Origin: Heterodontus francisci
Lineage: Eukaryota
DNA length: 64,000 nucleotides
NCBI RefSeq assembly: GCF_036365525.1
Contig: NC_090375.1
Span: 188,303,233 to 188,367,232, forward strand
Reading direction: 5' to 3'
Shown: piece by piece, positions 4,151 through 63,425 of the stretch
How the letters are laid out: the number at the start of each line of letters is the position of its first letter
Numbering within the stretch: the first letter of the stretch is position 1
Made by a program: the position numbers and the translations under genes
Notes under the pieces: model-generated
What the model saw: the letters and a program-made list of their open reading frames with translations, nothing else
Told to the model about the DNA's origin: nothing
The model's database searches: none

Positions 4151-4559
4151 TATCTTAATATCTCTTTATGAGGCTCAGCGGCAAATCTTTGTGTGTTAAT
4201 GCTCCTGTGAAGCACCTTGGGACATTTTACTATGTTAAAGGTGCTATATAAATGCAAATTGTTGAAAGAAGTGGTCTCGGCAATGAGAAGGATTTGGAGT
4301 TTCAAGCTCAGTTCAGGGCCGAAGATGACACTGAGGTTAAAATAATGCTGTTCTGGGCTGTACCATTTGATGAGGGGGATACACTATCATTCTTCTCCCA
4401 GAATAGCTAACCAAGTTTAGAGTGTGAATAGCTGAGCAATGGAGATCAGGAAGGTCCAATGCTTGATGCCCAGTCTGGTATTGATTATTGAGGCTCACAC
4501 ATGAATAACCATGACTTGGACACCAAACCAAAGGACAACCAGCAAGGAGTCCACACCTG

Positions 4560-6387: not shown

Positions 6388-7800
6388 GGGCATGGTTACA
6401 GCACAGAAGGAGGCCATTCGACACTTCGTGTCTGTGCCATCTCTCCGCCAGAGCAACTCAGCTCGTCCCACTCCCCTGCCCTTTCCCTGTAGCCCGCAAA
6501 TGTTTTGTCTTCAGGTGCTTATCCAATTCCCTTTTGAAAGCCATGATTGAATCTTCCTCTGCTACACTCTCAGGCAGTGCATTCTAGATCCTGACCACTT
6601 GCTGCATAAAAAGGTTTTCCCTCATGTTGCTGTTGCTTTTTTTGCCAATCACCTTAAATCAGTGTGTCTGCTTCTTGACTGTTCGGCCAATGGGAACAGC
6701 TTCTCTGGACTGAATTTTTCATGCCCATTGGCAAAGAGCTGGGAGGTGGGAGGGCTAGCAAAATGACGGGGAAGGCATGGGAGGGGAGCTGGATGTCTTC
6801 CCACCACATGCTATATTGCCAATGGTGGGAAAGTTGATTTGCCCATGTTGGGAGGACCCTCTGCTGCCTGGGGAGACCACCCAGTGAGTGGAGGGGGCCT
6901 ACTTTATGGGTACTCCATGGCCTGTGGCGGGGCCCCCCGGCTACCCTTGCAGCAATGGCACTGCTGGTGCTCCACGACCACCGTCCTCTGATCACCCCAG
7001 CTTCCCCCAACTTACCTCAACTCTCTTCCAGGGTGTCCCAACATTGAGGTGCCCTCTCGCTGGAGCTGCAGCCTCAGCAATGGCCACTGCTAGTGTGGCA
7101 CTGCTGAGGTTGCTGAGCTGCTGGCCCTCTGATTGGGCCAGCATTTCTTGGGGGTGGGCCACCGCCCTTAACTGGCTGCCGCCAACAATATGCCACCCGA
7201 TGCCCTGCCACCTGCCAAAGCAGGGTCGCTTCCTGCTTTTGGCCCCAGCAGCGGGACTTGCAGCAAAATTCAGCCCTGTCTATCTACTCTGCCTCGACCG
7301 CTCATGATTTTGAACACCTCTATCAAATCTCCTCTCAACCTTTTTTCTAAGGAGAACAACCCCTGCTTCTCCAATCTACCCACATAACTGAAGTCCCTTA
7401 TCCCTGGAACCATTCTCATCAATCTTTTCTGCACCCTCTCTAAAGCCTTCATGTTCTTCCTAAAGTGAGGTGCCCAGAATTGGACACAATACTCTAGTTG
7501 AGGCCGAACCAGTGTTTTATAAAGGTTTGTCATAGCTTCCTTGCTTTTGTACTCTGTGCCTCTATTTATAAAACCCAGGAACCCATATGCCTTTTTAACC
7601 ATTTTCTCAACCTGCCCTGCCACTTTCAACCATTTGTGCACATAAAGCCCCCGTACTCTCTGTTCCCGCACCCGCTTTAGAATCGTACCTTGTGTTTTAT
7701 ATTGCCTCTCCTCACTCTTCCTACCAAAGTGTATCACTTCATACTTCTCTGCATTAAATTTCATCTGCCTTGTGTTCACCCATCCCACCAGCCTGTCTAT
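6388..7800 (-). mobile_element. CR1 LINE 3' part, split by a MITE
   Basis: ORF 7270-7788 QMKFNAEKYEVIHFG...LYKTLVRPQLEYCVQFWAPHFRK; CR1 3' UTR at 6388-6700. Confidence 0.9.
6708..7275. mobile_element. PIF/Harbinger-type MITE inserted in CR1
   Basis: TIRs gactgaattttt...aaaattcagcc with 3-bp TSD CTG (6705-6707 and 7276-7278). Removing it rejoins the CR1 sequence. Confidence 0.75.
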
Positions 7801-7824
7801 GCAACTCTTCCTTTCTTTCTTGCA

Positions 7825-9330
7825 AGGTAGGAAACACGACAGCCTATTAGTGTACAGAAAGTTCCCACAAACAGCAATGGGATAAAGATCAGATAATCTG
7901 TTTTTGTGATGTTGATTGAGGAATAAAGATTGGTCAGGACACTGGGGAGAACGCCCCAGCTCTTCTTCAAAATAATGCCATGGGATTTTTTATGTCCACT
8001 TGAGAGTGCAGACAGGGCCTTGGTTCACTTTGACAAGGTCCCACATGGGAGACTTATCAAGAAAGCAAATGCACATGGGATACAGGGAAACTTGATAAGG
8101 TGGATTCAAAATTGGCTTAGCTGTAGGAGACAGAGAGAGTGATGACAGACGACTGTTTTAGTAACTGGAAGCCGGTGTCCAGTGGTGTACCACAGGGATC
8201 TGTGCTGGGTCCCCTATATAAACGACATAGATGACTATGTGGGGGGGTAGGATCAGTATGTTCGTGGATGACACAAAGATTGGCCGAGTGGTTAACAGTG
8301 AGGTTGAGTGTCTTGGGTTACAGGAAGATATAGACGGGATGGTCAAATGGGCAGAAAAGTGGCAGATGGAATTTAACCCTGAAAAGTGTGAGGTGATACA
8401 CTTTGGAAGGAGTAATGTGACATGGAAGTATTCAATGAATGGCCTGACACTGGGAAGTTCCGAGGAACAAAGGGACCTTGCATGTTTGTCCATAGATCCC
8501 TGAAGGCAGAAGCGCAGATAAATAGGGTGGTGAAAAAGGCATATGGGACACTTGCATTTATCAATCAAGGCATAGACTACAAAAGCAGGGAGGTCATGTT
8601 GGAGTTGTATAGAACTTTGGTAAGGCCACAGCTGGAGTACTGTGTGCAACTCTGGTTGCCACATTATAGGAAGGATGTGATTGCACTGGAGGGGGTGCAG
8701 AGGCGATTCACCAGGATGGTGCCTGGGATGGAACATTTAAGCTATGAAGAGAGGTTGGATAGGCTTGGGTTGTTTTCACTGGAGCAGAGAAGACTGAGGG
8801 GTGACCTGATCGAGGTGTACAAGATTATGAGGGGCATGGACAGGGTGGATAGGGAGCAGCTTAGTTGAAGGGTCAGTTACGAGGGGTCACAAGTTTAAGG
8901 TGAGGGGCAGGAGGTTTAAGGGGAATTTCAGGAATTCTATATAACCGTTTTTTACCCAGAGGGTGGTGACAGTCTGGAATGCACTGCCTGGGAGGGTGGT
9001 AGAGGCGGGTTGCCTCACATCCTTTAAAAAGTACCTGGATGAGCACTTGGCACGTCATAACATTTAAGGCTATGGGCCAAGTGCTGGCAAATGGGATTAG
9101 GTAGACAGGTCAGGTATCTTTAATGCATCAGTGCAGACTCGATGGGCCTCTTCTGCACTGTATTATTCTGTGATTCTATGATTCACTGTATCATCCAAAA
9201 GACAGCACCTCTGACAGTGCAGCACTCCCTCAGTACCAGACTTGATTTTTGTACTCAAGTGCTGGATGGGGATTTAAATCCACAATGTTCAAAGTCAGAG
9301 GCGAGTGCTACTAACTGAGCCACAGCTGAT
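7825..9330 (-). mobile_element. SacSINE1/Deu-type SINE split by a CR1 insertion
   Basis: SINE pieces at 7825-8026 and 9184-9330 are collinear with the copy at 21968-22440. Confidence 0.7.
8027..9183 (+). mobile_element. CR1 LINE ORF2 fragment (RT and C-terminus), frameshifted
   Basis: FDKVPHGRL, GVPQGSVLGP, MFVDDTK, WQMEFNPEKC, LVRPQLEYCVQ; ends in an (ATTCT)-type CR1 tail. Confidence 0.95.
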
Positions 9331-23547: not shown

Positions 23548-23982
23548 AAAGAAAACAATGACTTGCATTTATATAGCACATTTCACGACCGCAGAACATC
23601 CCAAAGTGCTTTATAGCCAATGAAGTACTTTTTGAGGTGTAGTTACTGTAATGTAGGAAATGTGGTGGCAAATTTGTGACCAGCATCTCCCACAAACAGC
23701 AATGAGATAATGACCAGATCATCTGTTTTAATGAATTTAGTTGAGGGTTTAAAATTGGCTGGCACATCAGGGAAAGCTTCCCTTCTCTTCAAATAGCACC
23801 ATACATCTATCTGAGAAGGCAGTCAGAACAATGTCGTAAAGTATCATCTGAAAGATGGCACCTCTGACAGAGCAGCACTCCACTAGAATGTCAGCCCAGT
23901 TTATGGGGGCAAGTCCATGGGGCTTGAACATACAACCTACTGATACAAAGTAATGATTGCTATCAACACAGCCAGGCTGACA
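23548..23982 (-). mobile_element. SacSINE1/Deu-type SINE
   Basis: gacttgcatttatatagcacatttcacgacc...gcacctctgacagagcagcactcc. Confidence 0.75.
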
Positions 23983-25479
23983 TTAGCATGGTAGCATATA
24001 AAACACAATGTTGTACTTAACCAACCTGTCCCTTTAAGAACAGAGAATCTAATTGCCATAAATCTGAAGTCACTCGGGTCAAGTTGTTGCTTGGGTAGGG
24101 AACATTGCAAATTATAAAATGCCTGTCAGATTGGAAGTTCACTGCATCAAGTAACTGGCTTTATCCCCTTATTTTTTTAACAAACTGCTTCACCTGTAAC
24201 ATTTGGTGTGTGATGTTTGTCCTGATGTACCATGTTTACTACACTACTAGTGGATCACCTGTGGGAATGCTCACAGTAAGTCTGAGGATGCTCTGCTTTA
24301 TCTGGGTAAAAAAACTTTGCCATGCATCACAGGATGTAAACACATGTTCCCTTAAGGCTCGGAGGTGCAGTTGATCTGAATTTTTGAAAACAGCCCTGGG
24401 GTAAGTTACTGGTCGTGCTGCGAATCAGAACCCTGGCTTTGATTCATTGACTGGTAAAGTAAAGAAGTTGGAACACCCTGATAATACGTTCACAGCATCA
24501 GGTAATTGATCCCCAGAAAAACTGGTTGTGAAGGCCTGAGGTCTACGATACGCCCAAGCCACCCAGCACTTTCCGAGTAAGCATAAAGGAAGCAAGGAGA
24601 CAAGATGGAAACTGTCCACTGTGTTTATTAGACATGGCTCAGTGGATAACACCCTTTCCCCGGGATAGCAGGTTTTGAGGTCAAGCTCCACTCCTGCATC
24701 TTCAGCACCCTCTGCCCAAATTACTCCCTGCTTACTTCAATGGAGAGTAATATCAGGTGGGGAGCAAAACCAGCATGGGATATACAAAAGTGTTACAGAA
24801 ATTTGTGACAGCAGGCCAGGGGCAAGATTTTTTTGGGCAGATCTCCTGTGGCATTGCTCACAACAAGGGACTAGATTGGACAGCTCCTTCAAAGAACCAG
24901 CACAGGATTTTGTCTGGTGCTTTGCTACCTTGCTCTGTCTTTCGTTATTGTCCTTGGTTCTTTTATCAATTTTTTCTTCCATGGTTTGCGTTTCCTGGTT
25001 ATTTGGCTTCATTCTTTCTTCTTTTCGCAAAATGAAAAATGGATCTGGGAGCCAATCTTTGAAGGAACAGCAGCACCATCTAGTGTCGGGAGGACTGAAA
25101 AGTAAACACAGTGCCACTCACACCACTCCCCCCGCCATCCCGCACTGCTGCCTTTATCAAACAGATAGCCATGTCCCATTTCCACAGGTGTCAATCACAA
25201 AGGTGCTGCTTAAACCATCTCAAGCACCCCAAATATTTTAGGCAGTTCAAGTAGCTGTTCACAACTTGTTAAAGTATAACTTCTTGAGAATACTGGTTTT
25301 TTTCTATTTCCCTGCCTTGAAAGATTATTGCAAGAAGGAAACAGCATGAAAAATGCTTAAAATTAGGTCAGTACTGAAAGGAATTCAGGGAAAAAGTGAT
25401 CTCCTGGACTATTGCCTAGGGAGAGTCAGAGAGAAATCTCCCCAGATGGTGTTTGTGGCACAATGTTGGGCATAGTCTC

Positions 25480-25815: not shown

Positions 25816-26429
25816 CTCAGCCTAACGTTGCTGTTGTATTGGGTGAAGGAAGAGGACATGTTGACATCCAGAAAGAGGGTAACTTGTGTCCCTCCCATTG
25901 CACTACTGCCACTCCTGCAAGGCTGTGGCTTATCCGTCCCACTCATGTGTGGGAGAGCAGTCACAGGAGCTGAGTGACACCTTGAAAGCCCTTATCTTTC
26001 GGTTCATCAGTCTCTTCAGGTTGGACCCCAGGGTCTGAATGGTAGCTGTTTGACCTTCCACCAAAGCTGCAAAGTCTGGTAACATAGACACCGGACTCCT
26101 CTTGTAAGGCTTTGGCAACAATGTCCACTGGAAGAGGCCACAATCTCCAGAGTAGACTGCAGTGCAGCAATGCTGTGTAAGAGGTTTGGAATGGGAATTC
26201 AAGATAGTTTACTGTGCCCTTGTGATGAGGAGTGAACAATGTGATGCGGGGGGGGGGGGGGGGGGGGGAATTGTTCGGATTGCTGTGGGAGGTGGGTGGA
26301 AAGGACTCTTACCAGGTATTGTGCAGAGAGATGGGGAGTGAGCCCTTGCTGCTCTGTGAGACCATTGAGGGGTTTGATGCTCAGGAAAGGTGCTAGGGGG
26401 TTGGGGGAGGTGATGGTCCTGAAGCTAAC

Positions 26430-26690
26430 TGTTGTGTGATTGCCTTTCAGAGTAATGTACCTTTAAGATCTTAGTATGCTAATGACCCAAGTACCAGGAT
26501 ATAGTCATGTGACTACATGCTTGTCCCACTCTGTAACTGTAACACCAAGAAGCAAGACCTGCAAATAGATAGCTCTGTACTGTGTATAGTTGTTAGTTGT
26601 TTAATAAATCTGTTTGAGATCTTCAACTACCTGAGCTCCACGCATCTCACTTATGGTGCATCAGACAACATAAAAAAGCTTCTCATTGCA
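26430..26690 (+). repeat. 5' LTR
   Basis: TGTTGTG...ATTGCA with internal AATAAA; about 22 substitutions versus the 3' LTR by manual alignment, no indels seen. Confidence 0.95.
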
Positions 26691-26705
26691 TGGTGGCAAT
26701 GGTGG
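26691..26705 (+). promoter_or_regulatory. Primer binding site, tRNA-Leu-like
   Basis: TGGTGGCAATGGTGG immediately after the LTR, versus TGGTGGCAGCGGTGG (complement of a tRNA-Leu 3' end including CCA, as recalled). Confidence 0.75.
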
Positions 26706-27427
26706 TGAGAAGAAAAAAATACAAGTTTTGACCACAGGAAAACAGCTTTAAAAACCAGCTACAGCTGGAAGTGGGAAAGTTAAAGAAAAATACTGCCCCA
26801 ACAGGGAAAGAAGAAAACCCCTTCATCTGCAGACAGAGCTCTGAACAACAGGTTACAGATCAATCACTGTGATCAGGTGAGTCAGTTTGCCATCGGTAGA
26901 GAAATCCCAGTTAAAAAAAGAAAAGCCTTTGAAGTCCTTAAAAAATTGATTTTTTTTCTGTCAAAGGCTCCCTGGGAGAGTAAAAAATACAGGGAAGACC
27001 CAATCCCTTTCTTAGGCTGATCGTGACGGACACCATTACAGGAGGCGTCCGACAACACAAAGCGCAGGAATCCTTCATTCATGTAGCTTGCAGCTAGAGC
27101 TATAAATAGAAACCATTAAATCAATGGAAGGCTCTAGAGCCTTCACTCACTCAGTCAGAGTTTAAAAAAAACTCGTAAAACCACTCAACCATGAAAAATT
27201 GCTGCTTGAAAGGCTGTATAAACAAACTAGCAGAGAGAAAAAAAAGCACTTGAAATACCTGTTGCACAGCTGTATAAACAGAACAGGCTTAGTGCTGGAA
27301 GCTAGACAAACAGACAATCTGCTGCTATCAATCAAATCAACCAAGACTGTTTCTTAATGAGGAAACAAGTACAGAGTCTTAAAGTAAGTTCTTAAAGCAA
27401 GCTTTAAAGCAAAAGAACAGCAGAAAG

Positions 27428-28110
27428 TTGGATTCCAATTTTCCCAGCATGAACTGGCAAGCCTTGGATATCCTATCCGAGTTCAAACTGTTCAAACAGA
27501 GAATGCAGTTATGCTTGACAGACCAAGTGCTGGAAGCAGAGAAGCAAACTAAAAATAATGATAGCGATTGGAAATGAGGGATTGCCAAGAGGCAATACGT
27601 ATGGATTATCTGAAGAGGACCAGAAAGATCCCACAAAGATATGGAAAGTGTTGGAAGATCAGCTCTGATTGAGAGTGAAATTTCAAATTCACCACCTGGT
27701 GCCCTATAGGCAACAACCACAGGAATCAATAGACCAGTTCATTAGTAGATGCCGAAGTAAGGCTAACGAATACGATTTCATAGAAGCTGAGCTGTCAGAC
27801 CGAATAATGCAGTTGGTGATTGTATCAACACCCATCAAAGCATTTCAGAAAGACCTCTTGGGGGAAAAAGAAAGGACAGCATTGATGCACTACTGGAAGA
27901 TGGCAGGAAGTATGAAACCATTGCAGCTAGACAACAGCATCTGCAAGCACTTGGTGCAGCCAACAGTATTGGATCCATAACCAGGTTGAAAAAGGCAAGC
28001 AAGCTGTGTGGTAAATGTGGTTGCTCCCACTCATGGTGAAGTTGTCTTGCATTTCGAGACCTGTGCAAGACATGCAGTGTAAAAGGACACTGGACCCGCC
28101 TATGCATGAA
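27428..28110 (+). pseudogene. gag: Degenerate gag (capsid-like region and two zinc knuckles)
   Basis: FPSMNWQALDILSEFKLFKQRMQL...KIWKVLEDQL*LRVKF...QQPQESIDQFISRCRSKA (MHR-like); CGKCGCSHSW*SC and CKTCSVKGHWTRLC at 28007-28105. Frameshifts and stops are present. Confidence 0.85.
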
Positions 28111-28339
28111 TTCCAGCTCAAAAGACAAAGCCAGAAGTCACGGTCGGATGCAAACAAACAGACAACAGGGCAACAGCAGCAAGGAAAGTGCAGAGACCTG
28201 TATAAACACAAGCCAATACATGAGGTCCACAGCAAAACAGACCAGAGACAAGACTTGGGTGGGAGCAAGTCTCGGTTAGAAGACGAGCAAGCATTCCACA
28301 TTGTGAACCTGACACATCACGTTGATGAAGTCCAACAAG

Positions 28340-28660
28340 CTTTCACCACCATCAACATCACGTGCCCAAGGAAAGCTGGCAAACATACACACAAGGTCAA
28401 GATTGACACTGGCGCTAGTGCAAATATCATACTGGTTCAAATCCTCAAAGATAGTGCCAGAATCGTTGGAGATCAATGATATAACTGACAACTGCCAAGT
28501 TATCTGCATACAATGGGTCACTCATCCCATGCAGTGGCACATTAACAATGCAATCCAGCTATGGCAAGTCAGCTTGGAAACCACAAACGTTCTACCTAGT
28601 AGACATGAGCAGACTGCCAGTGTGTAAGGACCTCAACATCATAACAATCCATGACAGTAT
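28340..28660 (+). pseudogene. Degenerate retroviral-type aspartic protease
   Basis: KVKIDTGASANII (DTG at 28405-28413); after a frameshift, KLSAYNGSLIPCSGTLTM...PQTFYLVD...LPVCKDLNIITIH. Confidence 0.85.
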
Positions 28661-28709
28661 TCCCAAAGGGAAATCTCCAAGGACCAGAATCTGCTCACAG
28701 ACTCTGACC

Positions 28710-29140
28710 AGCATCAAACGGCGCAGCCTGGGAACCCAGCAACAGCACAACGAGGCCGCGCCTTCACTTCTGCTGTCTAGAGAATCGCCAGCACCACAAC
28801 GAGCCAGAACGGACAGGTATCTCCATGAAACTAAGTACTCTTCCCCCAACAAATCCTTGACCTTGAGCCCCAAGTCTTCAGACACAGAGGATGAGGAGAG
28901 GCAAAGAACATGCAATGTCCTGAAGAGGCAGAGGAGGAATGAGTTGAAGCATTATCTGTTGGCTCTTTGAGATGATGTGCTGGAACTTTCCAAGAATGAT
29001 AAAACCTCAAAAGTAGTCTGCTTGAGAAAAGCAACAGAGTATGTTAGCAGGCTAAAGGCAGAGCAACAGAAACTGAAAGCAGAGAGGGCGAAATTGCAGA
29101 AAGAACAGCAACAGATGAGACGTAAACTCCTTGAGCAAGA
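28710..29140 (+). pseudogene. myc: Transduced Myc-family C-terminus (Myc box IV, NLS-like segment, bHLH-leucine zipper) with one internal stop
   Basis: IKRRSLGTQQQHNEAAPS (cf. LKRCHVSTHQHNYAAPPS); [90 protein letters not shown] (cf. c-Myc [60 protein letters not shown]...KLEQ). TGA at 28968 sits where Arg (CGA) is expected. Confidence 0.93.
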
Positions 29141-29278
29141 GTTGTCAAACCACCAAGACGACCTATGGACATTTGAGCCTCTATTCTTGTGAGTTTTATA
29201 ATCTCTAGCCATGTGTAAATAATTTTGATGTTATCTAATGTTATGTATTTTCACCATTAGCATACGAGACTTATCTTT

Positions 29279-29291
29279 GGAAAGAAGGGGA
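29279..29291 (+). promoter_or_regulatory. Polypurine tract
   Basis: GGAAAGAAGGGGA directly upstream of the 3' LTR. Confidence 0.9.
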
Positions 29292-29552
29292 TGTTGTGTG
29301 ATTGCCTTTAAGAGTAATGTATCTTTAAGATATTAGTATGCTAATGAGCCAAGTACCAGGATGTAGTCATGTGACTACATGCTCATCCCACTCTGTAACT
29401 GTAACACCAAGAGGCAGGACCTGCAAATAGAAAACTCTGTACTCTATAAAGTTGTTAGCTGTTTAATAAACCTGTTTGAGATCTTCAATTACCTGAACTC
29501 CACGCATCTCATTTATGTTGCATCAGACAACATAAAGAAGCTTCTCATTTCA
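29292..29552 (+). repeat. 3' LTR
   Basis: TGTTGTG...ATTTCA, 261 bp, followed by ctgac (5' flank ctaac). Confidence 0.95.
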
Positions 29553-30379
29553 CTGACCATCTTAGCCACCTCTCTCCAGGCTTGTTAAACATACATTTTT
29601 GGAATCTTCCTGCCATTAATGGGGAGGGAGAACTTTCATCTTCCACCTCTACTCTTTCACCATAAACTCCAGTGAGGTTTCAGAAAATCTGGGGATGTCT
29701 GCAACAGTCTCTGACCACATTCCTTTTTGCAGCAATGAAACAGCAAAACCAACCAGCTGGAAGTGCAGTATCCCTTTCAGCTTGATTTAAATGTGATTAA
29801 TTGTTCCAAACTGTGCATTTTGTGATACATATATAATTTCAATAATTTAACCTGGATTTTATCTTAGCTCTAAAAAAAACAAGCAATCATTGTAAGGTTT
29901 TGATGTGTGGATTAACAAGGTAAATTTCTAAATTAAACATAATGCAAAAGATTTCATGTAGATATACCATAAATAGCACTACGATTCATTCATTAATCCT
30001 GCTTGGATTGGGACTGCTACTGGGAGCTTGCACAAGAGGGGGTGACAAATTGAGTGCAGCTGCAGCTCTTAAAGGGGCTGCAGCTGCCACTTAAAGGGAA
30101 GCTTGCTTTTTTTTGGCAGTGATGGGATCACAGGCAGCAAACTGATTACTGGAAAGCTGTGGTACAATGCCGACAAAGAACCTGCAGCATTGGCTGAGCT
30201 TGTTTCTTCTTCAAGAAGTATGCCAAAGGAGTTTACTCCTTTTTTGCTGGGACTGAAGGGCATTCTCCTGACAGGAAGTCTGCCATATTAAGTGGGAGGA
30301 GGTGGTGGCACACAGGATCAATGCATATATAAATATAACAAATACTTTTATTTCTATATATATATATATATATGTAAAT

Positions 30380-33450: not shown

Positions 33451-34480
33451 GATGGTTGTGGTTGTTGGAGGTCAATTATCTCAGCTCCAGGACATCACTG
33501 CAGGAGTTCCTCAGGGTAGTGTCCTAGGCCCAACCATCTTCAGCTGCTTCATCAATGACCTTCCTTCAATCATAAGGTTAGAAGTGGGGATGTTCGCTGA
33601 TGATTGCACAATGTTCAGCACCATTCATGACTCCTCAGATACTGAAGCAGTCTGTGTAGAAATGCAGCAAGACCTGGACAATATCCAGCCTTCAGCTGAT
33701 AAGTGGCAAGTAACATTCGCGCCACACAAGTGCCGGGCAATGACCATCTCCAACAAGAGAGAATCTAACCATCGCCCCTTGACCTTCAATGGCATTACCA
33801 TTGCTGAATCCCCCACTATCAACATCCTGGGGGTTACCATTGACAAGAAACTGAAATACCATGGCTACAAAAGCAGGTCAGAGTCTAGAAATCCTGTGAT
33901 GAGTAACTCACCTCCTGACTCCCCAAAGCCTGTCCACCATCTACAAGGCACAGGCCAGGAGTATGATGGAATACTCTCCACTTGCCTGGATGGGTGCATG
34001 TCCAACAACACTCAAGAAGCTCAACACCATCCAGGACAAAGCAGCCCATTTGATTGGCACTCCATCCACAAACATTTATTCCCTCCACCACCGACGTACA
34101 GTGGCAGCAGTGTGTCTCATCTACAAGATGTACTGCAGCAATGCACCAAGGCTCTTTAGAGAGCACCTTCCAAATCCGTGACCTATTACCTAGAAGGACA
34201 AGGGCAGCAGATGCATGGGAACACCACCACCTGCAAGTTCCCCTCCAAGCCACACACCATCCTGACTTGGAACTATATCGACATTCCTTCACTGTCGTCG
34301 GGTCAAAATCCTGGAACTCCCTTCCTAAAAGTACTGTGGGACTACCTACCCCACATGGACTGCAGTGGTTCTAGAAGGCAGCTTCTTCACCACCAGCTTC
34401 TCATGGACAATTAGGGATGGGCAGTAAATGCTGGCCTAGCCAGCGACCCCCACATCCCATGAAAGAATACAAAAGAAAAT
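33451..34480 (+). mobile_element. CR1-group LINE (second family), RT and 3' end
   Basis: ORF 33452-34159 GVPQGSVLGPTIFSCFINDL...MFADDCT...WQVTFAPHKC; then MMEYSPLAWM and the 3' tail. Confidence 0.95.
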
Positions 34481-47774: not shown

Positions 47775-48770
47775 GTTGGGACCCTTACTTTTCCTGATAT
47801 ATATTAATGACCGAGACCTTGGTGTACGAGGCACAATTTCAAAGTTTGCAGATGATATGAAACTTGGAAGCATTGTGAACTGTGAGGAGGATAGTGTAGA
47901 ACTTCAAAAGGACATAGACAAGTTGGTGGAATGGGCAGACGGGTGGCAGATGAAGTTCAATGCAGAAAAATGTAAAGTGATTCATTTTGGTAGGAAGAAC
48001 ATGGAGAGACTATAAAATAAAGGGTACAATTCTAAAAGGGGTGCAGGAGCAAATGGACCTGGGTGCATATGTGCATAAGTCATTGAAGGTGGCAACCAGG
48101 TTGAGAGAGCGGTTAATAAAGCATACAATATACAGTACAGGCTTTATTGTTAGGGGCATAGAGTACAAGAGCAAGGAAGTTATGTTGAACTTGTATAAAA
48201 CACAGGTTTGGCCTCAGCTGGAGTATTGCGTCCAGTTCTCGGCGCCGCACTTTAGGAAAGATGTGAGGGCATTGGAGAGAGTAAAGAAAAGATTCACGAG
48301 AATGGTTCCAGGGATGAGGAACTTCAGATATGAAGATAGATTGGAGAAGTTGGGACTGTTTTCCTTGGAGAAGAGAAGGTTGAGAGGTGATTTGATAGAA
48401 GTATTCAAAATCATGAGGGGTTTGGACAGAGTAGATAGAGAGAAACTGTTCTCACTCATGAAAGGATCGAGAACGAGAGGGCACAGATTTAAATTATTTG
48501 GTAAGAGAAGCAAAAGTGACATGAGGAAAAACCTTTTCACGCAGCAAGTGGTTAAGGTCTGGAATGCGCTGCCTGGGAGTATGGTGGAGGCAGGTTCAAT
48601 TGAAACATTTAAAAGGGAGTTAGACTGTTATATGAGAAGGAAGAATGTGCAGGGTTACGTGGAGAAGGTGGGAGAATGGAACTGAGTGAATTACTCCTCC
48701 AGAGAGGTGGTGCAGACACGATGGACCGAATGGCCTCCTTCTGCACTGTAACAATTCTTTGATTCTGTGA
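47775..48770 (+). mobile_element. CR1 LINE RT/C-terminal fragment
   Basis: LGPLLFLIYIND...SKFADDMKLG...WQMKFNAEKC; ORF 47987-48685 PQLEYCVQF...FTQQVVKVWNALP; CR1 3' tail. Confidence 0.95.
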
Positions 48771-55074: not shown

Positions 55075-56295
55075 AGAGGTTATGATGTGAAGTTGCTGAA
55101 CTCAATGTTGAGTTCAGAAGGCTGGCAAGTGCCCATACAAAAGATGAGGTGCTGTTTCCTGAGCTTGCTTCATTGGAACAGTGCAGCAGGCCAAGAACAG
55201 AAAGATGAGTGTGGGAGCAATGTTGAGAATTAAAGTGACAGGAAGCTCAGAGTCATGCTTGCAGACTGAACAGAGGTGTTCCACAAATCAGTCTGTGGTT
55301 GGTCTTCCCCAATGTAGTGAATACAGTGTATATATGCTAAATTGAAAGAAGTATAAGTAAATCATTGTTTCACTTGGAAGGAGTGTTTGTGCCCCTGGCT
55401 GGGGAGGAGGTAAAAGGGCTGATGTTACATCTCCTGCACTTGCATGGAAAGGTTGCGGGTGACTGAGGAGTGGAGCAGGGTGTCATGGAGGGAACAGTCC
55501 CTTCAAAATGCTGAAAGGGGAGGTGAGAGGAAGATGTGTTTGGTGATGGCAGAGGATGCTCCATTGATTTACTGGAGGCGAATGGGGTGGAAGGTGAGGA
55601 CATGGAGAACCCTATCATGGTTCTGGGAGAGATAAGAAGGGTGATGGCAGAAGTGCATGGAATGGACATAGTCAAGGGCACTATCAACCATGGCTAGGGT
55701 GGGGGGTAATCCTTTGCTGCAGAAAAATGACGACAAATTGGACGCACTGGTATGAAAGGTTGCATTGTCCGAACGAATGCAACAGAGATGGAGAAACTGG
55801 GAGAATGGAAGAGTCCTTACAGGAAACGGGTTGTGAGAAAGTCAAGGTAACTGTGGGAGTCAGTGGGCTTAGTGAATATTTGTTGATGGCCCATCTCCAG
55901 AAATGGAGATGGAGAAGTCAAGGAAGGGAAGGGAAGAGTTAGAGATGGGCCATGTGAAGGTGAGAGAAGGGTGGAAATTAGAAACAAAGTTAATGAAATT
56001 TTCCAGTTCAGGGCAAGCAGGAAATGGTACCAATACAATCATCAATGTACTGGAAAAAGAGGTGAGGGAGGATGCCTGAATGGGACTGGAACAAGGAATG
56101 TTCCACACATCCCACAAAATAACATAACTAGGACCCATGCAGGTACACATAACAACACCTTTTATTTGGAGGAAGTGAGTGGAGTTGAAGGAGAAGTTGT
56201 TCAATGTAAGAACAAGTTCAGACAGGCGGAGGAGGGTGGTGGTGGGTGGGGACTGGTTGGGCCTCTGCTTAAGGAAGAAGCGGAGAGCTCTCTGA
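55075..56295 (-). mobile_element. Penelope-like element (RT and GIY-YIG remnants)
   Basis: NNFSFNSTHFLQIKGVVMCTCMGPSY, NFHPSLTFTW, LPFLDFSISI, KPTDSHSYLD, FPCKCRRCN. Confidence 0.9.
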
Positions 56296-56309
56296 CCTTT
56301 CTGATAGCT

Positions 56310-56490
56310 CAGATGGATGTAAAAGATCCCATAGCACTATTTCGAAGAAGAGCAGGGGAGTTCTCCCCAGGCTCCAGGCTGATATTTATCCCTCAACCAA
56401 CATCACTAAAACAGATGATCTGGTCACTATCTCACTGCTGTTTGTGGGACCCTGCAGTATTCAAAATTGTGTTTCCAACATTACAACAGT
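56310..56490 (+). mobile_element. SacSINE1/Deu-type SINE fragment
   Basis: gatggatgtaaaagatcccatagcactatttcgaagaagagcaggggagttctcc. Confidence 0.75.
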
Positions 56491-62757: not shown

Positions 62758-63425
62758 AGTGTCAGCTGCAGCTCTGAGTCAGAAGGCCACAGGTTCAAGT
62801 CCCACTCCAGAGACTTGAGTGCAAAACCTAGGGTGATATTCTCAGTGCAGTACTGAGAGAGTGCTGTACTGTCGGAGGTGCTGTCTTTCAGATGTGATGT
62901 TAATCCGACACCCCGTTTGCCCTCTCAGATGGATATAAAAGAACTCATGGCAATATTTCAAAGAAGAGCAGGGGAGCTCTGCCCAGTATCCTGGGTCAAT
63001 ATTTATCCCTCAACCAACACCAAAAAATGGGTTATTTGGTCATTATTTTCAATGCTGTTTGTGGACCTTACTGCACATAAATTGGCTGTCACATTTCCTA
63101 CATTATAACAGTGACTACACTTCACAAATAATTTGTTGACCCGACGCTCTGGAATTCCCTCCCTCAATCACTCCGCCTCTCTAACTCACTTTCCTCCTTT
63201 AAGACACTCCTTAAAACCAACCTCTTTGACCAAGTTTTTGGTCATCTGACCTAATATCTCCTTTTGGGGCTCGGTGTCATACTTTGTTTTGTATTGTTCC
63301 TGTGAAGCACCTTGGGACATTTTATTACGTTAAAGATGCTATATAAATATAAGTTGTTGTTGTGGCTGTAAAACGCTTTGGGCCGTCATGAAAAAGGAGC
63401 GATAAAAATGCACGTTCTTTCTTTT
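62758..63425 (+). mobile_element. SacSINE1/Deu-type SINE with an L2 3' end inserted at ~63143-63362
   Basis: Head ggttcaagtcccactccagagacttgag and core gtgcagtactgagagagtgctg. The SINE tail resumes at 63363 after the L2 tail. Confidence 0.8.

Follow-up and report, generated by a model that had tools for sequence, protein, structure and literature searches.

Acutely transforming retroviruses such as avian MC29 carry gag-myc fusions, in which myc replaces pol and the virus is replication-defective; MBI and MBII as well as E-box binding are kept in these fusions, and the infected cells are transformed. LTR-mediated retroposition in animals has been described from a survey of six species that, as presented there, did not include sharks (Tan et al. 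2016, PMC5131818), and maize Bs1 and human HERV-K/FAM8A1 are cited in the same paper as LTR elements with captured pieces of cellular mRNA. The gene mych is listed as a fish-specific gene that is present in a chimaera (PMC11457510). Full-length Myc3 of Hydra, which is devoid of the transactivation boxes, is reported to bind Max and E-boxes and not to transform alone (PMC10177328), so that a box-less Myc need not be harmful. LTR-mediated retroposition is a known mechanism; a Myc-family cargo is unusual. No published account of myc or mych capture in sharks was found in a search of titles and abstract openings, including few subscription papers and no supplements.

The window analysed here, a stretch of 64,000 nucleotides of Heterodontus francisci DNA, contains a Myc C-terminus that is carried by a 3.1-kb Ty3/Gypsy element with LTRs 92% alike and a 5-bp target duplication. 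The following features were identified along the element.

26425-26429, + strand: left target-site duplication CTAAC, four of five bases identical to the right flank CTGAC
26430-26690, + strand: 5' LTR of 261 bp with TG...CA ends and AATAAA at 26603, from sequence comparison with the 3' LTR
26691-26708, + strand: putative primer-binding site, a stretch that starts with TGG and abuts the 5' LTR
27428-28240, + strand: decayed gag that includes a zinc-knuckle region and falls into three pieces in two frames; stops lie at 27666 and 28037 (tblastn searches using Gag-Pol polyproteins, with E values as low as 1e-64, and frame reading)
28243-28652, + strand: aspartic protease with DTGA at 28405-28416, in two frames split near 28452-28461, with a stop at 28482 (tblastn with polyproteins and frame reading)
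28656-29128, + strand: captured mych segment with MBIV region, NLS, bHLH and four zipper heptads, corresponding to host residues ~201-357, in frame with the C-terminal half of the protease (protein comparison)
29126-29176, + strand: what is left of the C-terminal tail of integrase (..RVVKPP..), read in a different frame from mych and marking the 3' junction (profile of five polyprotein tails)
29279-29291, + strand: polypurine tract of 13 bases, from the sequence
29292-29552, + strand: 3' LTR of 261 bp, from sequence comparison with the 5' LTR
29553-29557, + strand: right target-site duplication CTGAC, from the sequence

The two LTRs differ at 22 of 261 sites (K2P 0.09), and gag and protease together contain three frame changes and three stops. 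By tblastn with the polyproteins of relatives, no trace of the RT and RNase H cores was detected within the element, nor was an env remnant seen in it. The integrase-tail profile gave its top score at this site among 127,918 six-frame positions (20.8 against 19.4 for the next), a thin margin but at the expected place. The mapping of gag and protease, the absence of the RT and RNase H cores and the integrase tail at 29126-29176 together indicate that mych replaced pol: it stands in place of RT, RNase H and integrase except for the last codons, in frame with the protease tail. As judged from the TG...CA LTRs, the target duplication, the primer site, the polypurine tract and the kinship of gag and protease, the element is a non-autonomous Ty3/Gypsy LTR derivative.

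Search with the gag piece yielded 254 relatives. Of nine relatives scanned, four are single polyproteins in which RT, RNase H and integrase follow one another in this order, and the remaining five are shorter or without match to one or more of these domains; mych sequence was present in none of the 150 gag relatives examined. The unjoined gag and protease pieces gave no credible Pfam family, and the Atlas search on these pieces gave a Retrotran_gag_2 lead only (28% of members). RT is deleted in this copy, and a Mag-like clade is a candidate for its placement. Rfam and ARAGORN searches found nothing, and a further LTR copy was absent from the 64-kb window. The leader between primer site and gag (26691-27427) is about 740 bases long and A-rich. 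Dating of the insertion was attempted with the mutation rate of 7e-10 per generation given for the epaulette shark (PMC10587355): division of 0.045 substitutions per LTR site by this rate led to about 6e7 generations, an absolute date that was rejected as too old for the placement in the tree.

For the captured segment itself, an earlier note made from the letters had proposed MBIV-like, NLS-like, bHLH and zipper motifs. All of them were found, in frame across 28737-29117, together with a stop and two substitutions in the basic region; each line below comes from the in-frame translation.

From 28737, + strand: QQQHNEAAPS, MBIV-like
28785-28808, + strand: SPAPQRAR, NLS-like
28878-28919, + strand: stretch ending in RTCNV
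28911-28913, + strand: Cys in place of the basic-region His that corresponds to MYC H359, a position altered in five of eight copies
28923-28925, + strand: Lys in place of the basic-region Glu that corresponds to MYC E363, as in all eight copies
28968-28970, + strand: in-frame stop cutting the HLH
From 28983, + strand: ELSKNDK..
29052-29117, + strand: zipper heptads L-L-L-M

Against the range of 28710-29140 given in that note, the mych-derived stretch starts 54 bp earlier, at 28656, and the bases 29126-29176 belong to the integrase tail. For the searches, the segment was translated with X at the in-frame stop. It matched Pfam HLH at 28.1 bits (cut-off 20.7) and human MYC bHLH-Zip (6g6j) with an E value of 5e-17, and the match to Myc bHLH-Zip is far above chance. 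Of the captured residues, 126 out of 157 are identical to Heterodontus mych; the mych part ends about 9 codons short of its natural end, and the host's fifth heptad position is missing at the 3' junction. MBI and MBII are missing, as had been noticed before, and no copy extends N-terminal of host residue ~119; the host motifs at residues 43 and 101 are those that we take to be MBI and MBII. With the stop in the HLH and the broken gag-protease frame, the window copy has no capacity for a dimer surface.

We next consider the paralogue. Among longer proteins, mych of Heterodontus francisci was at the top of nine matches (81%, E 2.9e-59). Over the aligned C-terminal block of 143 columns, identity to H. 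francisci mych was 82.5%. For mych of five further sharks it ranged from 71 to 76%, for that of three rays from 54 to 59%, and for nine MYCN proteins from 44 to 48%. Pairwise comparison of the bHLH-Zip gave 40 identities in 82 for human MYC (counted by eye) against 66 in 80 for Heterodontus mych. The suggestion of a mych origin, made in the earlier note, was borne out by a tree of the window translation and 25 named host proteins, with no MYC or MYCL among the 120 matches listed of 1249. The window paired with Heterodontus mych at 98/95 and fell within elasmobranch mych at 95/95, MYCN being separate at 100/100, and a constrained clade of window plus MYCN was rejected (p-AU 0.014). In this protein set, the mych of Scyliorhinus torazame (P0006) shows a 21-residue tandem duplication just N-terminal of the basic region, either real or an assembly artefact, and a carp 'Myc-2-like' (P0010) and a paddlefish 'MYC regulator' (P0022) cluster with named mych, their names looking loose.

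Seven H. francisci proteins, six of them N-myc-like and one myc-like (P0004, P0007, P0008 and P0012-P0015), were found to be sibling chimeras, with at least one retroelement junction in each of the seven. They are known as predicted proteins only, and are spread over six contigs that all differ in length, none of them matching the host mych contig in this respect. In the long forms P0007, P0008 and P0015, an RT stub is followed by mych from host residue ~121, with a D-A-x-P motif in both parents at the crossover (at the protein level), and about 80 mych residues are present in addition to those of the window copy. In the medium forms P0004 and P0012, mych is joined near host residue 131-133. 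The short form P0013 has the junction as in the window, from the protease tail to host residue ~201, while P0014 has a later start and the tail as in the window. The short form presumably lies beyond the last intron, by analogy to MYC. An acidic motif, which we take to be of MBIIIb type, is present in four siblings and, with a gap, in a fifth. The HLH-Zip is unbroken in the seven predicted proteins, one of which stops after the third heptad; the Met of the zipper, replacing the fourth Leu of the host, is common to the window and three of the seven siblings. The Atlas search with P0004 led to generic Myc clusters. The junction of P0004 and P0012 falls at an I-E-S motif common to the RT stub and mych, and the medium form may have arisen by deletion between short repeats. 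The C-terminus of P0012 is in the integrase-tail frame, and the window, P0004, P0013 and P0014 read that stretch in another frame.

The earlier view that only the Myc C-terminus was captured thus fits the window copy but is not supported for the family, since the long siblings start at ~121 and include the MBIIIb region. As judged from these long forms, the capture appears to have taken in about two thirds of the protein, and the window copy would be a secondary deletion form, shared with one sibling. All eight copies grouped with Heterodontus mych at 92/84, though a branch separating the eight from every other sequence was present in only 56% of the bootstrap trees. The seven siblings share the Glu-to-Lys change and the junction pieces, and are most simply viewed as further copies from one capture. 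The evidence from siblings consists of protein models, and gene models could mimic some of the deletions.

The Glu-to-Lys change lies in the base-contact triad His-Glu-Arg of the basic region (PMC7226237), which reads Cys-Lys-Arg in the window. Among 156 columns, it is the only one with an identical non-host residue in all eight copies. Both His and Glu were retained in 100 of 100 named cellular Myc-family matches, after 15 unnamed matches were left out. The copies departed from the host at 23 of 120 basic-region positions, compared with 1 of 60 for four mych proteins from other sharks. The Lys codon of the window is outside CpG context, which makes independent recurrence unlikely and a single founder the straightforward explanation. 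With MBI and MBII missing, the triad altered and the HLH interrupted, the window copy is not a functional Myc transcription factor.

The state of decay was then compared with neutral expectation. The window differs from host mych at 31 of 157 residues; 14 of the differences are private, and 14.3 are expected neutrally from the LTR distance. For all copies, private changes fell on host-invariant columns (35/400) as often as on variable ones (74/793; p=0.83). No sign of host retention or selection was found in any of the eight copies, and the window copy decayed neutrally. Several changes common to three or four copies are located on NLS and zipper columns that are invariant in nine other host mych proteins, and these shared changes suggest that the source elements were themselves under relaxed constraint. 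That inserted copies decay neutrally is no statement on selection in the active source element.

From these observations we regard it as probable that the mych piece is a passenger and the window copy a neutrally decaying pseudogene. On the Heterodontus line, an ancestral single-ORF Ty3/Gypsy element would have co-packaged host mych mRNA in germline particles. As the junctions suggest, the reverse transcriptase would have switched templates to the mRNA within the first few codons of RT and returned at the last integrase codons, and the product would have kept the LTRs, primer site, polypurine tract, gag and protease together with mych ~121-357 in frame, as read from the siblings at the protein level. 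This defective element would have been copied in trans by intact relatives; nested internal deletions would have arisen in the course, the short form being seen in the DNA of the window. The presence of Lys in eight of eight copies implies that Glu-to-Lys was probably already in the founder lineage, and any protein made would have been without MBI, MBII and E-box reading while keeping the Max-binding surface. The complete LTR anatomy, with mych filling the gap between protease and integrase tail, supports capture by an LTR element, and the maternal expression of mych reported for zebrafish (PMC2323570) is consistent with capture in the germline. The only change fixed in all eight copies is, however, at a base-contact residue, for which the chance is about 3 in 156 (calculated post hoc); under a pure passenger model this is luck.

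The fixed change bears directly on an alternative, unlikely in our judgement, in which the mych piece served the element: a box-less bHLH-Zip released by the protease would bind Max and not E-boxes, damp Myc signalling in germ cells, and thereby aid the spread of the element. The mych fusion is in frame in both the window DNA and the siblings, and where all eight copies have Lys, 100 of 100 named cellular matches have Glu. The MYC H359A/E363A mutant is described as retaining Max binding, losing E-box recognition and acting as a dominant negative upon over-expression (bioRxiv 2020.05.04.076190), and in E47, Lys is reported as the most strongly dominant-negative substitution of the corresponding Glu (E555K; PMC11286708). 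The Glu-to-Lys change thus fits a Max sink, if the protein was made. The frame would, however, be kept by chance in one of three cases, and the siblings were found through annotated ORFs, which are biased to in-frame fusions. In addition, the last zipper position is gone, the shared changes fall on conserved NLS and zipper sites, and a Max sink is expected to cost the host. The dominant-negative role on Myc/Max raised in the earlier note fails for the window copy (HLH stop, broken frame, no sign of selection); for an intact sibling it is plausible, and more so with Glu-to-Lys.

The same change could also be the mark of host filtering, in that captures occupying E-boxes were too harmful and only a lineage devoid of E-box reading and transactivation boxes spread. 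The sole change fixed in eight of eight copies is indeed at the base-reading Glu, and His is changed in five of eight. Only one founder event (n=1) is at hand, and the E47 data as reported suggest that Lys renders the protein a stronger, not a weaker, dominant negative (PMC11286708). We consider this explanation rather improbable.

A tether, as proposed in the earlier note, by which the bHLH-Zip would bring the element or the proteins it encodes to E-boxes, has the presence of NLS-like and bHLH-Zip sequence in its favour but is scarcely credible: the E-box-reading Glu has given way to Lys in eight of eight copies, and the integrase is deleted, leaving nothing in cis to tether; the change in all copies argues against a tether and is compatible with Max sequestration if the protein was ever made. 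Equally remote is a LINE-made processed pseudogene or DNA duplicate of mych that landed in a pre-existing LTR element: the window is rich in LINE remnants, but RT, RNase H and integrase are replaced rather than interrupted, the 3' junction is without a poly(A) tail, mych ends about 9 codons early, and the junctions are common to the siblings.

As for the neighbourhood of the element, a scan of 19 ORFs identified no host exon close to the insertion: 18 were without Pfam match, and one was a LINE RT. LINE-type remnants were observed at 33452-34159, 7270-7989, 47981-48685, 8416-8868 and 55869-56336, the Pfam RT match being confined to 33452-34156 and the others recognised by eye. Short dispersed repeats, probably SINE or LINE ends, occur at 112-209, 2621-2718, 23552-23649, 4187-4264, 63282-63359 and other positions. 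A protein-like ORF of 126 codons on the - strand (24737-25117), about 1.3 kb upstream of the element and without Pfam match, could be a host exon.

The family adds cartilaginous fishes to the known range of LTR-mediated gene capture, its Myc-family cargo having been amplified in the germline, and it forms a natural series, from capture through nested deletion to decay, that would allow selection on the captured transcription-factor domain to be measured from aligned DNA. The seven horn shark proteins named N-myc-like or myc-like are chimeras between a retroelement and mych, and would inflate the count of shark Myc genes. The Glu-to-Lys change affects the residue at which substitution turns other bHLH proteins into dominant negatives, which raises the testable question of what can be tolerated by a genome. 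If the mych piece did serve the element, the family would be a germline mirror image of the gag-myc tumour viruses, carrying an anti-Myc where those carry an oncogene.

Compared with the gene of origin, the window copy is without residues 1-200 (1-120 in the long forms) and the last ~9, its basic region is altered, and its HLH contains a stop. In MYC H359A/E363A and E47 E555K, the same residue is changed as in the shark copies, but those are expressed and tested proteins. The boxes are missing in both Hydra Myc3 and the shark copies, but Hydra Myc3 still binds E-boxes, as described in PMC10177328. Like the gag-myc viruses, the shark element is a defective LTR element with myc-family sequence in place of pol; unlike them, it is an env-less Gypsy element of the germline, its cargo is mych, the transactivation boxes are absent and the base-reading Glu is lost. 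An acutely transforming myc retrovirus was excluded as the identity of the element by the Gypsy-type gag-protease, the absence of an env remnant and the absence of MBI and MBII. Maize Bs1 and HERV-K/FAM8A1 have other hosts and other cargo, and FAM8A1 is described as an untranscribed pseudogene (PMC5131818). In structure, the shark element matches the LTR-mediated retrocopies described in the same paper, in which a partial mRNA replaces part of the internal ORF between intact LTRs and may spread further as a non-autonomous element. Short similarity is reported there at the switch points; for the shark family, the D-A-x-P motif at the long-form junction is read from protein sequence. In contrast to the cases described in PMC5131818, the shark family carries a Myc-family domain fused in frame to gag-protease, in at least eight copies and with nested deletions.
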